Assembly: GCA_902593475.1 (NCBI GenBank) | Contig: CACJIM010000003.1 | Span: 10,718 to 74,717 of the forward strand | DNA length: 64,000 bases | From: an uncultured Candidatus Actinomarina sp. | GTDB taxonomy: Bacteria; Actinomycetota; Acidimicrobiia; Actinomarinales; Actinomarinaceae | Direction: 5' to 3' | Part shown: positions 33,062-40,278 of the stretch, piece by piece | Position numbering within the stretch: position 1 is the first letter of the stretch | Layout: the number at the start of each line of letters is the position of its first letter | The notes under the pieces: model-generated | Databases searched by the model: none | Told to the model about the DNA's origin: nothing | What the model saw: the letters and a program-made list of their open reading frames with translations, nothing else | Program-made: the position numbers and the translations under genes

Positions 33062-33649
33062 TTATATGGGCTTTAAGCTAAAAGATTTTCTGTGAATATT
33101 AGATAAACCATATTTTGAGATAGCTTCTCTGTGCTCTTTTGTTCCATAGCCTTTATTCTTTTCAAATGAATATTCAGGATATTTTTCTGAAAATTTAATC
33201 ATTAAATTGTCTCTGAGAACTTTTGCGACAATACTTGCTAAAGCTATTGCTCTACAATTATCTTCTCCTCGTACAACAGAGATAGATTTGAAGTCATTAA
33301 TTTTAAAATGATCAACATATACTATTTCATTGTTTGTGTAGATATCAGAGATTGAGTCAGTTAATACTTTTTCATTAGCGTTCTTGATTCCAAATTGATC
33401 AATAAAAGTATTTGATGATTCATTAAATGAATACTCAATATTGTTTTCTTCGACCATTGAAAATATTTCTTCCCTTTTTTTTGGACTAAGTTTTTTTGAG
33501 TCTTTTACATTAGTTAGTAGTTCTAAATGTGAATAATTAATCTTTACTGCTGCAGCACATATTGGACCAGCAAAAGAGCCTCTGCCTACTTCATCTGCTC
33601 CTATTATGTATTTAGTTGGATCTTCTGACCAAATTTTATCTTCAATCAT
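33062..33649 (-). CDS. rnhB: ribonuclease HII
   Basis: DEVGRG active-site motif. Conserved lepB-rnhB order. Confidence 0.9.
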   Translation of the reverse strand: MIEDKIWSEDPTKYIIGADEVGRGSFAGPICAAAVKINYSHLELLTNVKDSKKLSPKKREEIFSMVEENNIEYSFNESSNTFIDQFGIKNANEKVLTDSISDIYTNNEIVYVDHFKINDFKSISVVRGEDNCRAIALASIVAKVLRDNLMIKFSEKYPEYSFEKNKGYGTKEHREAISKYGLSNIHRKSFSLKPI

Positions 33650-34121
33650 TTATATTTTTAAAATTTTCAAATGGGAAGATTACATAATAAGCTTTCCCAA
33701 CAATATTATTGTAAGGTATTGTTCCAATGTATCTCGAGTCTTGACTGTTTATTCTGTTATCACCTAAAACAAATATCTCACCATCAGGGACAATGTATGT
33801 TTGGTCTTTGAAGTATCTACCTTCTTCAATATTCAGCACTACAAATTTGTTGTTATTTACAAATACTTCTCCTGATTTCTTAATAACTACTTCATCGCCA
33901 CTAGAACCAACAACTCGTTTAATTAGTGCAGTATTTAAATAAGTCTGATCATTGGTTAGTTTCCAAATCTGTAAAGACTCTATAAATTGGTCATAATAAT
34001 TTTCATCAAACTGTGTTTGCGGACCATAAAAGACAACAATATCACCTGTAGATATATCTGTCTCTATGAAAGTATTTTTTACTACTAAAACTCTGTCATT
34101 AACTTGTAAGGTTGGTTCCAT
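33642..34121 (-). CDS. lepB: signal peptidase I (LepB). True start lies upstream of the first ATG; coding sequence likely extends to about 34238.
   Basis: SSSMEPTL box B and later SPase I boxes. A hydrophobic TM segment is encoded in-frame upstream of the only ATG, with no ATG/GTG/TTG anywhere in it. Confidence 0.85.
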   Translation of the reverse strand: MEPTLQVNDRVLVVKNTFIETDISTGDIVVFYGPQTQFDENYYDQFIESLQIWKLTNDQTYLNTALIKRVVGSSGDEVVIKKSGEVFVNNNKFVVLNIEEGRYFKDQTYIVPDGEIFVLGDNRINSQDSRYIGTIPYNNIVGKAYYVIFPFENFKNIND

Positions 34122-34238
34122 AGAAGATGATGGAATGAAATAAATTTGTATAAAAAAAGTTCTAACTAATGTAGCTGCAACAATAGCTAAAACGATTATT
34201 AGTGATGACTTAAATAACTTCTTTATAATAATAAAAGT

Positions 34239-34583
34239 TTAATTACGATCTTCTTTTATTTTGGCTGATTTACCAACACGATCTCTAAGGTAATATAGTT
34301 TAGATCTTCTTACTTTACCTTTTCTAATAACTTCAATAGAGTCAACAATTGGGGCATGAACTGGAAAAATTCTTTCGACACCAACACCAAAAGAAAGTTT
34401 TCTAACTGTAATAGTTTTATTCACTCCTACACCATTAATAGCAATAATTACACCTTCGAATGTCTGAATTCTTTCTCTGTTTCCTTCGGATACTTTTACG
34501 TTGACTTTTACAGTATCTCCAGAACCAAAGGAAGGTAGTTCTTCCTTTAAGAATTCATTTTCAATGCTTTTTATTAAGTCCAT
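34239..34583 (-). CDS. rplS: 50S ribosomal protein L19
   Basis: Full-length L19. Confidence 0.95.
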
Positions 34584-34620
34584 AGTTGCTCCAGATGAGA
34601 ATTATATAATTAAATTAAGT

Positions 34621-35256
34621 TTATATGTCTTTTAAATTATTCTTTTTCCATTCATCTATTTTTTGATGATTTCCGGACAGAAGTACCTCTGGAACTTCCT
34701 TATTTTTAAAGATTTCAGGTCTTGTATAGACTGGATAATCAATTTTGTTATCTGTGAAAGTTTCACTTATTAATGATTCAGGATTTCCTAACACATCTGG
34801 GATTTTCCTAATCAACGCTTCTAACAAATACAAAGCTGGTACTTCTCCCCCAGAAACAACAGATTGACCAATTGAAATTTCGTAATCAGAATGAATTTCC
34901 AAGATTCTTTGATCAAATCCCTCGTATCTTCCACACACCATATTAATTGACTTGTATTCAAGTAATTCACTTATAAGATTTTCATTTAAATGTTGTCCTG
35001 ATGGGGTTAGGAAAACATTAATATCTGCTTTGCAGGAAGTTATAGCTTTGTCTAATGGTTCTGGCATCAAAACCATTCCTGGTCCACCGCCATATGGAGC
35101 GTCATCAACCTGTTTATATGTACCTATGCCAAAATCTCTTAGGTTTGTTGAATTTATAGCTACTAAATTATTTTTTAATGCCTGATTAATAATCCCGGTA
35201 TTTTTCCATTCTTCAATTAGATTAGGAAATAATGTTATTACATTGTAAGAATTCAT
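34621..35256 (-). CDS. trmD: tRNA (guanine37-N1)-methyltransferase
   Basis: SPOUT-fold TrmD motifs. ATGA overlap with the upstream cofH stop. Confidence 0.92.
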   Translation of the reverse strand: MNSYNVITLFPNLIEEWKNTGIINQALKNNLVAINSTNLRDFGIGTYKQVDDAPYGGGPGMVLMPEPLDKAITSCKADINVFLTPSGQHLNENLISELLEYKSINMVCGRYEGFDQRILEIHSDYEISIGQSVVSGGEVPALYLLEALIRKIPDVLGNPESLISETFTDNKIDYPVYTRPEIFKNKEVPEVLLSGNHQKIDEWKKNNLKDI

Positions 35257-37088
35257 CTTTTTTCTAAAGTATTTTTTGTTTCAGTGAATTCTGTATATAG
35301 CGTATTTCTTAAAATTGGATTTTTATTTTCAGACTCAATTATTTGAATAAATTGATCTACAGTAGTTTCTTGCCCATGATCTGCTCCTGAAGCTCTGCTA
35401 ATGTTTTCGTTGATCAAAGTACCGCCTAAATCATTAACTCCAGCATGAAGGAGTTTGCCTGCTCCATCATGACCCAATTTCACCCAGCTTGCTTGAATGT
35501 TGTCTATTGAATTTAAAAAGAAGATTCGTGCTAGTGAGTGAATAAGAACGACCTCATCCCAAGTAGGTCCTGGCATACTTTTACCTTGCAAGAAAATAGG
35601 AGAACCCATATGCACAAAAGGAAGTGGTACAACTTCAGTAAATCCATTTGTTTTTCTTTGAACATTTTTAATCAATGAAAAATGATTGACCCATGAATCT
35701 ATATCATCAATATGACCAAACATAATTGTTGCAGTAGATTTAATACCTAAGTTATGTGCTACTTCCATTACATATGCCCATTGTGAAGAAGTTATTTTAT
35801 CAGGGCAAAGATATTTTCTAACTCTATCATCTAGTATTTCAGCCGCAGTACCGGGGAGTGTGTTTAGTCCAGCTTTTTTTAACTGACTTAAGTACTCTTC
35901 AACACTCAAACCAATAGTCTCTGCACCCTGCCAAATTTCTAAAGGAGTGAAACCGTGAATATGCATTTCCGGAACAGAAGCTTTTATATCTTCGACCATT
36001 TTTAAATAAAACTCTCCTGTATAGTCAGGATGAATGCCTCCTTGTAAACACACTTCTGATGCACCCATTTCATATGCTTCGACTGTTCTTTCAACTACTT
36101 CTTGTATATCAATGGTGTATGGTTTTTCTTTTAAATTTAAACTATTAGGACCTTTAGAAAAACCACAGAAACCACATTTGTAATAGCATTGATTCGTATA
36201 ATTAATATTTCTATTCTTTACATAAGAAACATTATTTCCGTTTTTTAAAAAATTTAACTCGTTAGCAACGTTAGCAATATCATTTATTTTTTCTCCTGCA
36301 GTATTAAACAATACTCTCAGATCATCATTATTAATTTGATATCCATCTAATACCCTTTTCAATATTGAGTCAATTTCAGAATGGTTAATTTGACTTTTAT
36401 TGTTAAAGACAAAATTATTTAAATTTGGAATTTTTTTTCCACTTCCAGGAGACCAATTTGTCTCTTCTCTTCTAAAACCTCTGACATTTCTAGTTTTTAA
36501 GAATCTAAAAAATCTTTCTTTATCAAATTCTTCTCTTGCCTCATCAATAGAAAATATAGGAGAAAGTAAAGTTCGTTCATAGAAGTTTAAACCTTCTAGA
36601 TTTTGTAGTTCTAGTATCTGTTCGGAACTCCAGTCTCTGAGGAGTAAATCTGAAACCCCTGCATTTGCAAATTCAATTGCTTCCTCAATTGTTTCAACAT
36701 ATGTCGATGTTATAAAACTAGTTTTTGAGTTGATAGATTTAAGGAATTTCAGATCTGAATTGGTAGAAATTAATATAGTATGTGGCTTTAGCCTATCGAT
36801 AACTTCTAATGTGGTTTCAATATTATTTTTAAAAATGTAAATCAATCTTTTTGGATGAACAGATTTAAATTCCTTCCAGTTTTCATCAGTAACCATCCAC
36901 ACGTCTGAGTTTATGGTGATATCTTTTGATACTGTTTGAAATTCCTTATTATGTAAATTATCTGTATTTACTGATACATTACTTTTTATTAAGAATGTAG
37001 AAGTCCCCTCTTTTTTTCTTGAATTTAAATATATTTCATTGTCGCTATCACATGGTCTGATTCGAAGAAAAGAAATGTTATTGCTCAT
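35253..37088 (-). CDS. cofH: FO synthase subunit 2 (CofH) with uncharacterised ~250-aa N-terminal domain
   Basis: C-terminal 360 aa are radical-SAM CofH (CYYKCGFC, HIHGFTP, GxNDLGGT). The canonical CofH N-terminus begins near residue 250 of the ORF. Preferred ATG overlaps the cofG stop by 11 nt in a different frame. Confidence 0.85.
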   Translation of the reverse strand: MSNNISFLRIRPCDSDNEIYLNSRKKEGTSTFLIKSNVSVNTDNLHNKEFQTVSKDITINSDVWMVTDENWKEFKSVHPKRLIYIFKNNIETTLEVIDRLKPHTILISTNSDLKFLKSINSKTSFITSTYVETIEEAIEFANAGVSDLLLRDWSSEQILELQNLEGLNFYERTLLSPIFSIDEAREEFDKERFFRFLKTRNVRGFRREETNWSPGSGKKIPNLNNFVFNNKSQINHSEIDSILKRVLDGYQINNDDLRVLFNTAGEKINDIANVANELNFLKNGNNVSYVKNRNINYTNQCYYKCGFCGFSKGPNSLNLKEKPYTIDIQEVVERTVEAYEMGASEVCLQGGIHPDYTGEFYLKMVEDIKASVPEMHIHGFTPLEIWQGAETIGLSVEEYLSQLKKAGLNTLPGTAAEILDDRVRKYLCPDKITSSQWAYVMEVAHNLGIKSTATIMFGHIDDIDSWVNHFSLIKNVQRKTNGFTEVVPLPFVHMGSPIFLQGKSMPGPTWDEVVLIHSLARIFFLNSIDNIQASWVKLGHDGAGKLLHAGVNDLGGTLINENISRASGADHGQETTVDQFIQIIESENKNPILRNTLYTEFTETKNTLEKR

Positions 37089-38199
37089 TGTGTTCTTTTG
37101 GATATCCATCTGTATCAATAATATTATTAACTTTTTCAAAAATTTTACTGTTTAACCATTCTTTTTTTATAAATTCGGGATAAACGGGTAATCTCTTTTT
37201 AAGGACTTGACCTGTACTTGAAATATCTAATTTTAATTTATTTATATTTGGCCACAAATGATCTGGATTTACCCAATCAATAGTTAATGGAGATATTCCA
37301 CCTAAATCATTAATGCCACTTTTTAAAAATATTGTTATATCTGGTGAAAGATTTGGTGGGACTTGAAGAGATATATGTGAAGGGGCATAAATTCTAGTTG
37401 TTGCAATGATTCTTAAAAATAAATCATTTGTTATTTCAGAACTATTCTTCATTAATGTATTTTTCTTTGCTCTGAAGTTTTGTAGTATTACTTCCTGAAT
37501 TGCAGGGTTCTTTTTTACATAATCAATTAAATTAGATATATCATTTACAATTTCTTCTTTTGTTGAGGTTAAACCAAGAAGTAATCCAGTTGTAACTGGA
37601 TATTTTTCTTCTAATGCATTGTTAAGGGTATCCAACCTTAAATCAATATATTTAGTATCTGTTTTGTAATGAGCTTTTCCCTTATCGTATATATTTTTTG
37701 AAAATGACTCAATCATAATCCCACCAGATGGTGAGTGATTTTTTAACTCCTTTATCTCTTGTTTGCTCATTAAACCAGGGTTGGCGTGAGGAAAAAGATT
37801 AAATTTCTCATTTACAACTTTCATCGAACTAATTAAATAATCATGAGTTGAGGAATGGCCTAATTCTTTAAGTTGGTTTAAAGCAAAGTCCCATTTAAGC
37901 TCTGGCTTATCTCCTAAAGTAAACAAAGCTTCATAGCAACCAGCTTCATCACCAGCTTCTGCTATCGAGAGAACCTCATCTTGATTTAAATAAGTTCCAC
38001 CCTCTTTGGGAGATTTTACAAATGTACAATATCCACAATTGTCTCTACACATTGTTGTTAGTGGAATAAAAACTTTAGGACTATATGTTATGTTGTTGCC
38101 AAAGTAATCTATTTTCTTTTCAAAAGCATTAGCTAACAGTTCTTCAGTTGAAACTGATCCAAAAATGGAATCATTTATTTTTCTTGTTAATTCTGTCAT
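37078..38199 (-). CDS. cofG: FO synthase subunit 1 (CofG)
   Basis: Radical-SAM CRDNCGYC and a CofG-type C-terminal domain. 373 aa. Confidence 0.88.
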   Translation of the reverse strand: MTELTRKINDSIFGSVSTEELLANAFEKKIDYFGNNITYSPKVFIPLTTMCRDNCGYCTFVKSPKEGGTYLNQDEVLSIAEAGDEAGCYEALFTLGDKPELKWDFALNQLKELGHSSTHDYLISSMKVVNEKFNLFPHANPGLMSKQEIKELKNHSPSGGIMIESFSKNIYDKGKAHYKTDTKYIDLRLDTLNNALEEKYPVTTGLLLGLTSTKEEIVNDISNLIDYVKKNPAIQEVILQNFRAKKNTLMKNSSEITNDLFLRIIATTRIYAPSHISLQVPPNLSPDITIFLKSGINDLGGISPLTIDWVNPDHLWPNINKLKLDISSTGQVLKKRLPVYPEFIKKEWLNSKIFEKVNNIIDTDGYPKEHNEQ

Positions 38200-38268: not shown

Positions 38269-39273
38269 ATGGCAAATGTATCTTTAGTTGGCTTTGGAAG
38301 AATAGGTAGAGATCTATTTAGGCAAACATTGGGTGATACTGATATAAACATTGTATCTATTTCTGACACCGCTGATAAAGCTAACTTAATTTATTTATTA
38401 AAGTACGACTCAATTTACGGAAAGCTAGATGCAGAAATTGAGGAATCTGAAACTGGTATTGTTGTTAATGGTAAAGAAATCATATTTAATTCTTGGAAAA
38501 ATGGTGACGAAGCAAATTGGGATGAACTAAACACTGACATTGTAGTTCTTGCAACTGGTAGACCAAAGACTAAAGATGAAGTTGATAAACATTTATCAAA
38601 AGGTTGCAAAAAAGTAATCGTTGCCTCAACTCCCGAAAATTTTAAAGATATACAAATATATGTTCCTGGTGCAAACGATGAAGATATAGATTTAAACTCT
38701 AGTGTATTTTCCTTAGGTTCCAATACAGCAAATGCAGTTGCACCTATTCTTAAAGCTTTAGATAGTAAAGTTGGGGTTGAAAGAGCATTTCTCACGACTG
38801 TTCATGGATATTCAAATTCAAACCGTTTAGCAGATGTAGCAGGTGAAGGTTTTAGACTTAACAGAGCAGCTGGTGAAAATATTATCCCAAGTATTACTAA
38901 GTCTTCTGAGGTAATATCAAATGTTCTTCCATTCATTGAAGGTAAGATAGCCTCATCATCTATGACAGTACCAATTCCTGACGGAAGTACAGTTGATTTG
39001 ACAATTGATATTAAAACCGAAACAAGTATTGAAGATATTAATAAAATAATTGAAGATGCTTCCAATTCTAATTTAAAAAACATTATTGGATTAACATATG
39101 ATCCAATTGTTTCATCTGATGTTGTAAGAAGCACACTCTCTGGTTTAGTAGACGGATTAGCAACAATGGGCATTAATAATAAAAAAATTAAACTAATTAT
39201 TTGGTTTGATAATGGTTGGGGTTATGCAGCTAGAATTGTCGATACAGTGAAAAAGCTTGGTCAGGTGTTATAA
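38269..39273 (+). CDS. GAPDH paralog lacking the catalytic cysteine (probable pseudo-enzyme)
   Basis: Full GAPDH fold (GFGRIGR NAD motif, TTVHGYS, NIIP). The active-site SCTTNC is replaced by SNTANA. Confidence 0.85.
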   Translation: MANVSLVGFGRIGRDLFRQTLGDTDINIVSISDTADKANLIYLLKYDSIYGKLDAEIEESETGIVVNGKEIIFNSWKNGDEANWDELNTDIVVLATGRPKTKDEVDKHLSKGCKKVIVASTPENFKDIQIYVPGANDEDIDLNSSVFSLGSNTANAVAPILKALDSKVGVERAFLTTVHGYSNSNRLADVAGEGFRLNRAAGENIIPSITKSSEVISNVLPFIEGKIASSSMTVPIPDGSTVDLTIDIKTETSIEDINKIIEDASNSNLKNIIGLTYDPIVSSDVVRSTLSGLVDGLATMGINNKKIKLIIWFDNGWGYAARIVDTVKKLGQVL

Positions 39274-40278
39274 ATGGGTAATGTAGCAATAAACGGTTTT
39301 GGAAGAATTGGACGTTCTATATTAAGAATAATTGTTGAAAATAATTCTGATTTAAATGTTGTTGCAATTAATGACCTCGGTAATTATGAAAATCTTGCAT
39401 ATCTTTTAAAACATGACTCTGTAATGGGCATTTTGGATAGTGATGTAAAAGTTGATGGAGACAATCTTTTAGTTGGAGATAGAGTTATTAAACTTACCTC
39501 AATAAAAGATCCTGCTGAACTTCCATGGAGCGAATTAGATGTAGATGTTGTAATTGAGTCAACTGGAATTTTTAGAGATAATGAATCCCTTAATAAACAC
39601 ATATCTGCTGGTGCTAAAAAAGTATTACTTACTGTACCACCCAAAGATGAAATTGACGCAACAATAGTGTTAGGTGTAAATGATAACGACTTGAAGCCAG
39701 ATGATAAAATTGTCTCTAATGCATCATGTACTACAAACTGTTTAGCACCGATAGCTAAAGTACTGGATGATAATTTTGGAATCAAATCTGGTCTTATGAC
39801 CACAGTACATGCATACACTAATGATCAAGCACTAGCTGAAACAACACATAGTGACTTTAGGAGAGGCAGAAGTGCTACCCAAAATATAATTCCTACTTCA
39901 ACAGGCGCAGCTAAAGCAGTTGGTATGGTTTTACCTGATTTAAACGGTAAATTAGATGGTATGGCAATGAGAGTTCCAGTGCCAGATGGAAGTGTAGTTG
40001 ATTTAGTAGTGGAGTTAGAAAAAGCTGTTTCTATAGACGATGTAAATAAAGCTGTCAAAGAAGCTGCAGATAACGAACTGAAAGGAATTTTAGAGTACTC
40101 TGAAGTGCCTCTTGTCTCTACCGATATATTAAATAATCCACATTCAAGTATTTATGATGCATCTTCTACACAATTAATAGACGAAAATCACGTCAAAGTT
40201 GTATGTTGGTACGACAACGAATGGGGTTACTCAAATAGAGTTGTAGATCTTATTGGAAATCTATTAAACAATGGATAA
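39274..40278 (+). CDS. gap: type I glyceraldehyde-3-phosphate dehydrogenase
   Basis: INGFGRIGR, SNASCTTNCLAP and TTVHAYT all intact. Starts 1 nt after the paralog's stop. Confidence 0.93.
   Translation: MGNVAINGFGRIGRSILRIIVENNSDLNVVAINDLGNYENLAYLLKHDSVMGILDSDVKVDGDNLLVGDRVIKLTSIKDPAELPWSELDVDVVIESTGIFRDNESLNKHISAGAKKVLLTVPPKDEIDATIVLGVNDNDLKPDDKIVSNASCTTNCLAPIAKVLDDNFGIKSGLMTTVHAYTNDQALAETTHSDFRRGRSATQNIIPTSTGAAKAVGMVLPDLNGKLDGMAMRVPVPDGSVVDLVVELEKAVSIDDVNKAVKEAADNELKGILEYSEVPLVSTDILNNPHSSIYDASSTQLIDENHVKVVCWYDNEWGYSNRVVDLIGNLLNNG

Follow-up and report, generated by a model that had tools for sequence, protein, structure and literature searches.

Cofactor F420 is built around the deazaflavin FO, and CofH is one of the two halves of the machinery for FO synthesis. 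In a stretch of 64,000 nucleotides (hereafter the window; GC content 32%) of contig CACJIM010000003.1, from an uncultured Candidatus Actinomarina sp., cofG and cofH lie on the minus strand as two overlapping genes, and the radical-SAM core of CofH begins only near residue 230 of a 611-amino-acid (aa) protein. The residues ahead of this core comprise a predicted small barrel that lacks a cluster motif, followed by a segment related, by profile comparison, to the C-terminal tail of CofG and the inter-domain linker of the fused FO synthase FbiC. The features of the locus, with residues of CofH counted from the ATG at 37088, are as follows:

37078..38199, minus: cofG, 373 aa, stand-alone radical-SAM FO-synthase subunit, assigned from the open reading frame (ORF) list and TIGR03550
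38026-38049, minus: CxxxCxxC motif of cofG, CRDNCGYC (CofG residues 51-58)
37078..37088, minus: 11-nt cofG/cofH overlap, ATGAGCAATAA, with cofH starting, out of frame, within the last codons of cofG
35253..37088, minus: long cofH, 611 aa plus stop, from the homology-supported ATG
36600..37088, minus: predicted beta/alpha barrel at the N-terminus, lacking a cluster (CofH residues 1-163, with the model extending the barrel to about 171)
36770-36790: site of a 5-residue segment missing from the barrel (CofH residues ~100-107)
36411..36599, minus: segment resembling the CofG tail and FbiC linker, LEGLNFYERT...RREETNWSPGSGKKIP (CofH residues 164-226), with the motif D..G..R...W.PG...P
35256..36410, minus: short remainder of the linker, CofH radical-SAM core and CofH_C region (residues 227-611)
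36165-36188, minus: CxxxCxxC motif of cofH, CYYKCGFC (CofH residues 301-308)
35253..35256, minus: ATGA overlap of the cofH stop and the trmD start

A split cofG-cofH pair

Both genes are readily assigned to the FO synthase families. CofG scores 357.5 bits against TIGR03550 in the NCBIfam scan (cutoff 213.35) and carries the CxxxCxxC motif, which together place it in that family. CofH scores 458.2 bits against TIGR03551 (cutoff 374.1) over a core at ORF residues 247-623, with the Pfam domains Radical_SAM at 312-488 (65 bits) and CofH_C at 498-618 (57 bits), and this core is apparently complete and functional; by homology, and given the adjacent cofG, the pair may be expected to form FO. Neither gene reaches the cutoff of 1018 of the fused-FbiC model NF006687 (cofH 486 bits, cofG 368 bits), and positions 412-469 of that model, which correspond to the linker, stay unmatched. 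The first ~245 residues of the ORF have no Pfam or NCBIfam match, even when scanned alone at E<=1, in agreement with an earlier reading of the sequence alone (the sequence-only reading), which had described this region as of unknown identity. Queries of Pfam, NCBIfam and PDB sequences with the extension returned nothing significant, either as a single sequence or as a 12-member diverse profile; the weak PDB profile matches were to an NtrC receiver (E=0.0077) and to a de novo TIM barrel (E=0.0025).

The ORF at 35253..37139 (minus) measures 628 aa when counted from its first mechanical start, a TTG. This TTG at 37139 and a further in-frame start, ATG 37109, both fall within cofG, and probably neither is used, to judge from the family alignment. 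The junction reads ...GAACACAATGAGCAATAACATT, with the cofG TAA at 37078-37080, and ATG 37088 opens MSNNISFLRIRP... (MSNNISF...) in the other frame, overlapping cofG by 11 nt. Since the family's conserved first strand, I-[TS]-F-x-R-x-R-P, starts 1-8 codons past the junction start codon, ATG 37088 can be taken as the start of cofH. The sequence-only reading had given the length of cofG and the position and frame of this overlap exactly; its estimate of ~250 aa for the extra N-terminal domain contracts to ~230 aa when counted from ATG 37088, and the domain itself stands. It had also allowed for an inner Met start near residue 250. The stretch between residues 65 and 341 is devoid of Met codons, so the CofH core cannot be separately started from an ATG. 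The chance of a 235-codon open frame arising at the base composition of the window is ~2.5e-9.

The overlap of the two ORFs, together with the prevalence of fused FbiC in other Actinomycetota, could be taken to mean that cofG and cofH are made as one FbiC-like polypeptide by programmed frameshifting, or that the split is a sequencing error. The comparative evidence renders this highly improbable. In over 80 loci, drawn from independent assemblies, cofG and cofH are divided by a stop codon and a frame change, and the start codon sits at a conserved position downstream of a GGAGG-like site. Around 65 of 80 related loci, as well as the cultured Miltoncostaea oceani, show a 4-nt overlap (ATGA/GTGA/TTGA) after such a site, junctions of the Actinomarina type overlap by 4, 8 or 11 nt (8 nt in locus L001, 4 nt in locus L002 and 11 nt in the window), and a few loci have spacers of 90-230 nt. 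Because the frame and spacing of the junction thus vary between lineages, a conserved programmed frameshift is ruled out, as no slippery site could be conserved through such variability. Furthermore, a fusion would measure ~980 aa, whereas the longest match in an exhaustive profile search is of 624 aa. On this comparison of junctions, cofG and cofH are separate, translationally coupled genes, as the sequence-only reading had held in preferring coupled genes to a frameshifted fusion.

Distribution of the long CofH

The extension is not a peculiarity of the window. A pattern derived from high-GC members (a mixed alignment of low- and high-GC members being too weakly conserved) was scanned against a single genome for each species and identified at least 292 species genomes, mostly of Acidimicrobiia, that encode a relative of the N-terminal domain. 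The 80 best loci were fetched for inspection, almost all from metagenome-assembled genomes of Acidimicrobiia with GC contents of 59-73%. In all but two of them the N-terminal domain and the CofH core form a single ORF (617-648 aa), both exceptions being apparent frameshifts, and cofG lies immediately upstream of the long cofH wherever the contig extends far enough. Outside the class, a plasmid of M. oceani, a cultured member of the Thermoleophilia, holds genes for a 406-aa CofG and a 616-aa CofH, adjoining cofC, cofD and cofE; its long CofH (WP_217925219.1) is annotated plainly as 'CofH' and scores 253 bits against a hidden Markov model (HMM) of the N-terminal domain. The actinobacterial FO synthase has been reviewed as a fusion (PMC8498797), and the sequence-only reading had likewise regarded a split as unusual for Actinobacteria. 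As far as the sequenced loci go, a separate cofG followed by a long cofH is instead the norm across the class Acidimicrobiia, and is found in addition in the Thermoleophilia isolate.

Protein searches delineate the same family. A sequence search with the extension found marine metagenome proteins only (48-96% identity), one of them named Candidatus Actinomarina sp., and in P0002, P0003, P0008, P0017 and P0019 the extension continues directly into the CofH core. When 1.84 billion representative proteins were searched exhaustively with a profile, only 56 matched; among these are high-GC proteins of the same architecture, such as the full-length P0101 (624 aa), and none is a protein of FbiC length bearing the N-terminal domain. 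The architectures found were either fragments of the domain or the domain joined to Radical_SAM, and a second profile search revealed no other partner domain. At the C-termini of several metagenome-derived proteins (P0001, P0004, P0020, P0034 and also P0075) the sequence ends in CLLYTSPSPRD... or LSLIHI, which we take to be a translated Illumina Nextera adapter; in that case, the contig ends would be contaminated with adapter.

Entries of two further kinds could suggest that the N-terminal domain is naturally a separate protein and that its fusion to CofH in the window is an assembly artefact, since gene-caller output includes 'stand-alone' proteins of 267-291 aa (P0012, P0021) as well as CofH proteins of 438 aa (P0036, P0037). 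Inspection of their contigs makes this exceedingly improbable. P0012 and P0021 lie on long JGI contigs in which gap, lepB, rnhB and cofH are also frame-broken, the apparently short CofH P0036 is cut off by a run of N, and the inspected loci, all but two, keep the domain and the core in one open frame. Judged by these contigs, it is the stand-alone domains and the short CofH entries that are assembly artefacts. In L001 and L002 (JGI 3300046170; 609 kb and 961 kb), the genes gap, cofH, lepB, rnhB and upp are split by frame changes, which suggests uncorrected long-read indels that create spurious 'hypothetical proteins' like P0012 and P0021.

Fold and ancestry of the N-terminal extension

The N-terminal domain is predicted with confidence to be a small barrel. 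AlphaFold2 (AF2), supplied with residues 1-210 and 49 sequences from low- and high-GC members, returned five models in agreement, with a predicted local distance difference test score (pLDDT) of 90.4 and a predicted template modelling score of 0.87; an earlier model, built on a shallow Actinomarina-only alignment (pLDDT 75.8, the other four at 53-59), was superseded by this deeper mixed-GC alignment. In the predicted structure, 8-9 strands and their intervening helices occupy the chain as far as residue ~171, and two further helices come after them. Foldseek comparison against the PDB retrieved only (beta/alpha)8 barrels (TM-scores 0.41-0.51, root-mean-square deviation 5-8 A, identity 7-15%, ~200 aligned columns), including IGPS and designed derivatives, GGGPS/PcrB, HisA/PriA, HpcH aldolases and the de novo sTIM11. 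The domain is hence predicted to be a generic small TIM-like barrel without a close structural relative. Of the alternatives offered by the sequence-only reading, a small phosphate-binding TIM barrel or a flavodoxin-like unit, the number of strands in the AF2 model favours the barrel; the attribution of phosphate binding goes further than the matches, which are at the level of the fold only. A B12-binding or flavodoxin-type cofactor domain, also considered, found no Pfam support, and no such domain appears among the 50 best fold matches. The search for a half-barrel repeat within the domain produced a weak hint only (P=0.015 over 23 columns).

In the family alignment of the extension, Cys exceeds 30% in no column and His in only one. 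Because it has no conserved Cys, the N-terminal domain cannot hold a radical-SAM cluster or perform radical-SAM chemistry. Conservation is nevertheless marked at other positions: across lineages that share 23-29% identity, R9, R11, P12, R24, E27, G28, W80, R81, D147, R151, W153, E171, R172, R207, W212, P214 and G215 are invariant or nearly so, and the persistence of polar residues over such divergence indicates that the domain is under selection. Actinomarina-type domains lack a 5-residue segment (LRT.RS, with near-invariant Arg and Ser) that is found in all high-GC relatives, and its loss is, on the alignment, a lineage-specific deletion inside the barrel.

By eye, the C-terminal end of the extension (LVERTA.P...F.AYL.QVDGSGAARPRY.WAPG...P) looks like the C-terminus of CofG followed by the FbiC linker. 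For comparison, genuine FbiC genes were taken from plasmids and supplemented with 38 fragments covering the FbiC junction, in which the junction has the conserved motif L.ERLaiYP.y....W.dp.l....l...D..G.aR.D.W.PG....P, and both alignments were trimmed ahead of the CofH core helix before comparison by hhalign. Residues 168-226 of the extension matched the CofG tail and linker (Prob 93.1, P=3.1e-7, score 46.9), collinearly with the domain order, while 100 column shuffles reached a maximum of 24.7 (median 13.1) and the reversed profile 12.4. This profile match shows CofH residues ~164-226 to be homologous to the C-terminal tail of CofG and the inter-domain linker of FbiC. Relaxed or global alignment stretches the match further back, setting GA.DLLLRDW opposite AGINDWGG, the last strand of the CofG barrel, with low confidence, and a separate comparison with CofG and the N-terminal halves of FbiC recovered the same register (extension residues 144-214 against CofG 314-393, P=0.03). 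The long CofH thereby shares with FbiC a CofG tail and linker motif ahead of the CofH core; the second radical-SAM domain and cluster motif that FbiC holds in the same polypeptide are absent from it, as the extension has no conserved Cys. The N-terminal barrel has no Pfam match to mark it as a radical-SAM domain, and its hhalign comparisons are likewise not significant.

This homology might be read to mean that the extension is merely a long, diverged FbiC linker left on CofH after a split of fbiC, with no independent domain, as the sequence-only reading had allowed. The conclusion would be apt for residues ~164-226; it is already contradicted, on present comparisons, for the first ~163, which occur in no FbiC linker, and as an account of the whole extension it is very unlikely. 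The FbiC linker spans ~60 profile positions (NF006687 412-469) against the 230 residues of the extension, the prediction of a folded barrel for residues 1-170 is a confident one, and the HMM of the N-terminal domain, with all filters off, has no match in Rhodococcus FbiC, the one FbiC tested directly, in keeping with the outcome of the exhaustive profile search. Moreover, a simple split of fbiC cannot yield two CofG tails, because the stand-alone CofG retains its own, and the second copy would be left unexplained.

A probable, if by no means certain, explanation is that the long CofH derives from an FbiC-like CofG-CofH protein whose CofG half has decayed to a cluster-less pseudo-domain while a separate CofG does the chemistry. 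Under this scheme, the ancestor would have been an FbiC-like fusion whose CofG half turned redundant beside a stand-alone cofG, lost its cluster motif and shrank to a pseudo-enzyme domain. The pseudo-domain would then have been retained under strong constraint in the Acidimicrobiia and some Thermoleophilia, and the present route to FO would rely on a normal CofG together with a long CofH, the two being translated separately but in a coupled manner. Residues 1-163 would also descend from the CofG barrel, a whole-barrel descent that is favoured because the predicted barrel uses strands lying within the tail-like segment. The role favoured for the domain today is structural or docking rather than catalytic, with the CofH core dependent on its former partner domain; it may stabilise the CofH core, dock CofG or bind a ligand.

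Several observations weigh against this explanation. Neither the match of residues 1-138 to the CofG barrel (hhalign P=0.13) nor that of the extension to the CofH core or barrel (E=0.28) is significant, and the whole extension is not significantly similar to CofG or to the CofH core, in a comparison where the control of CofG against the CofH core reaches 97.8% probability; it is because of these results that descent of the whole barrel is put forward conditionally. A CofG barrel is about twice as large, and the 50 best Foldseek matches are all ordinary TIM barrels rather than radical-SAM enzymes. The extension may therefore be a chimera of an unrelated barrel and a captured CofG tail, a reading that stands because residues 1-138 are unmatched, the barrel is half-sized and its structural matches are ordinary. 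The many invariant Arg, Asp, Glu and Trp residues could mark a ligand site instead. Lastly, the two domains of FbiC have been reported to act independently, the intermediate diffusing between them (PMC8498797), which weakens the need for docking.

Such observations lend some weight to the proposal that the barrel is a functional ligand-binding or catalytic domain, of an origin unrelated to CofG, fused ahead of a remnant of the CofG tail and linker. Candidate functions are the binding or delivery of 5-amino-6-ribitylaminouracil, of tyrosine or of the CofH product, the retention of FO, and the sensing of F420. In TIM-like barrels the ligand usually sits at the C-terminal ends of the strands, the closest fold matches include the ribulose-phosphate-binding barrels IGPS, HisA/PriA and GGGPS/PcrB, and residues 1-138 have no detectable similarity to CofG; the invariance of charged and aromatic residues, in particular, makes ligand binding a serious rival. 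Set against it are the lack of any Pfam, NCBIfam or PDB sequence match, the generic nature of the structural matches (TM-score at most 0.51, 7-15% identity), the absence of conserved Cys or His and of a recognisable phosphate-binding motif from the alignment, and the fact that the domain was never found alone or with another partner. Furthermore, the predicted barrel includes strands inside the CofG-tail-like segment. On balance, this proposal is to be regarded as unlikely, if still to be taken in earnest.

Returning to descent from an FbiC-like protein, a more specific form of the idea can be entertained tentatively, in which the N-terminal module represents a new family of domains, namely a CofG barrel minus its cluster, reduced to a minimal TIM-like barrel of ~165 residues with a new role in FO synthesis. 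Such a role might consist in holding CofG and CofH together for the handover of a labile intermediate, or in binding the diaminouracil substrate or the FO product, and the FO synthase of the Acidimicrobiia would then be a mechanistically distinct third form beside CofG plus CofH and FbiC.

Gene context and relation to known FO synthases

In the window, cofG-cofH-trmD-rplS-lepB-rnhB form a tightly packed minus-strand block (33062-38199), whose order is kept in the Actinomarina-type loci L001-L003. Such an operon context is unusual for a cofactor-biosynthesis pair. Beyond cofG lie two GAPDH paralogs, at 38269-39273 (+) and 39274-40278 (+), each of 334 aa, 37% identical to one another and with zero intergenic gap; the active site of the second is canonical (SNASCTTN), and in the first (SLGSNTAN) an Asn stands in for the catalytic Cys. 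The related contigs L001 and L002 likewise have a pair of neighbouring Gp_dh genes at the corresponding place. Scans of the 64-kb window for tRNA genes and for Rfam families at the gathering threshold found none.

FO synthase is described as either separate CofG and CofH or fused FbiC, with no structure solved for either form (PMC8498797), and a study of Actinomarinales genomes mentions the F420 pathway as present only (PMC7771536). Literature text searches on CofH in the Acidimicrobiia and on an N-terminal extension of CofH returned no description of the domain. Its ~230 conserved residues are ignored by current family models and by annotation, which names the proteins just 'CofH'. The long CofH offers a concrete marker for the history of fusion, fission and decay of FbiC and, if the proposed origin holds, a natural pseudo-domain derived from a radical-SAM enzyme, while the existence of a cultured carrier, M. 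oceani, makes the role of the domain testable.

The long CofH of the window can be compared with several known systems. The small (beta/alpha)8 barrels retrieved by Foldseek (IGPS, HisA/PriA, GGGPS/PcrB, HpcH aldolases and sTIM11) share the predicted fold of residues 1 to ~175, and differ in that no profile match and no common catalytic or phosphate-binding motif was identified. Stand-alone CofH (TIGR03551/NF005609, ~370-400 aa), from archaea and cyanobacteria, likewise has the CxxxCxxC motif and CofH_C and pairs with a separate CofG, but its family models lack the ~230 N-terminal residues, position 4 of NF005609 corresponding to ORF residue 252. A full-length counterpart in culture, that of M. 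oceani, has the same three-part architecture (616 aa), a 4-nt overlap with cofG and a cofC/D/E cluster, and differs in being high-GC, plasmid-borne and from the Thermoleophilia, with ~21% identity to the N-terminal domain of the window. FbiC/CofGH (NF006687, ~850 aa), to positions 470-842 of which the CofH core aligns, has the same domain order of barrel, CofG tail, linker motif D..G..R.D.W.PG...P and CofH core. Ahead of the tail, however, FbiC has a CofG domain of ~320 residues where the long CofH has a cluster-less barrel of ~165, and the long CofH carries a single CxxxCxxC motif, with CofG encoded by a separate gene. The pair found in the Acidimicrobiia, including the abundant marine Actinomarinales, is best read as a third, class-wide form of FO synthase, in which CofH bears a cluster-less, CofG-like remnant.

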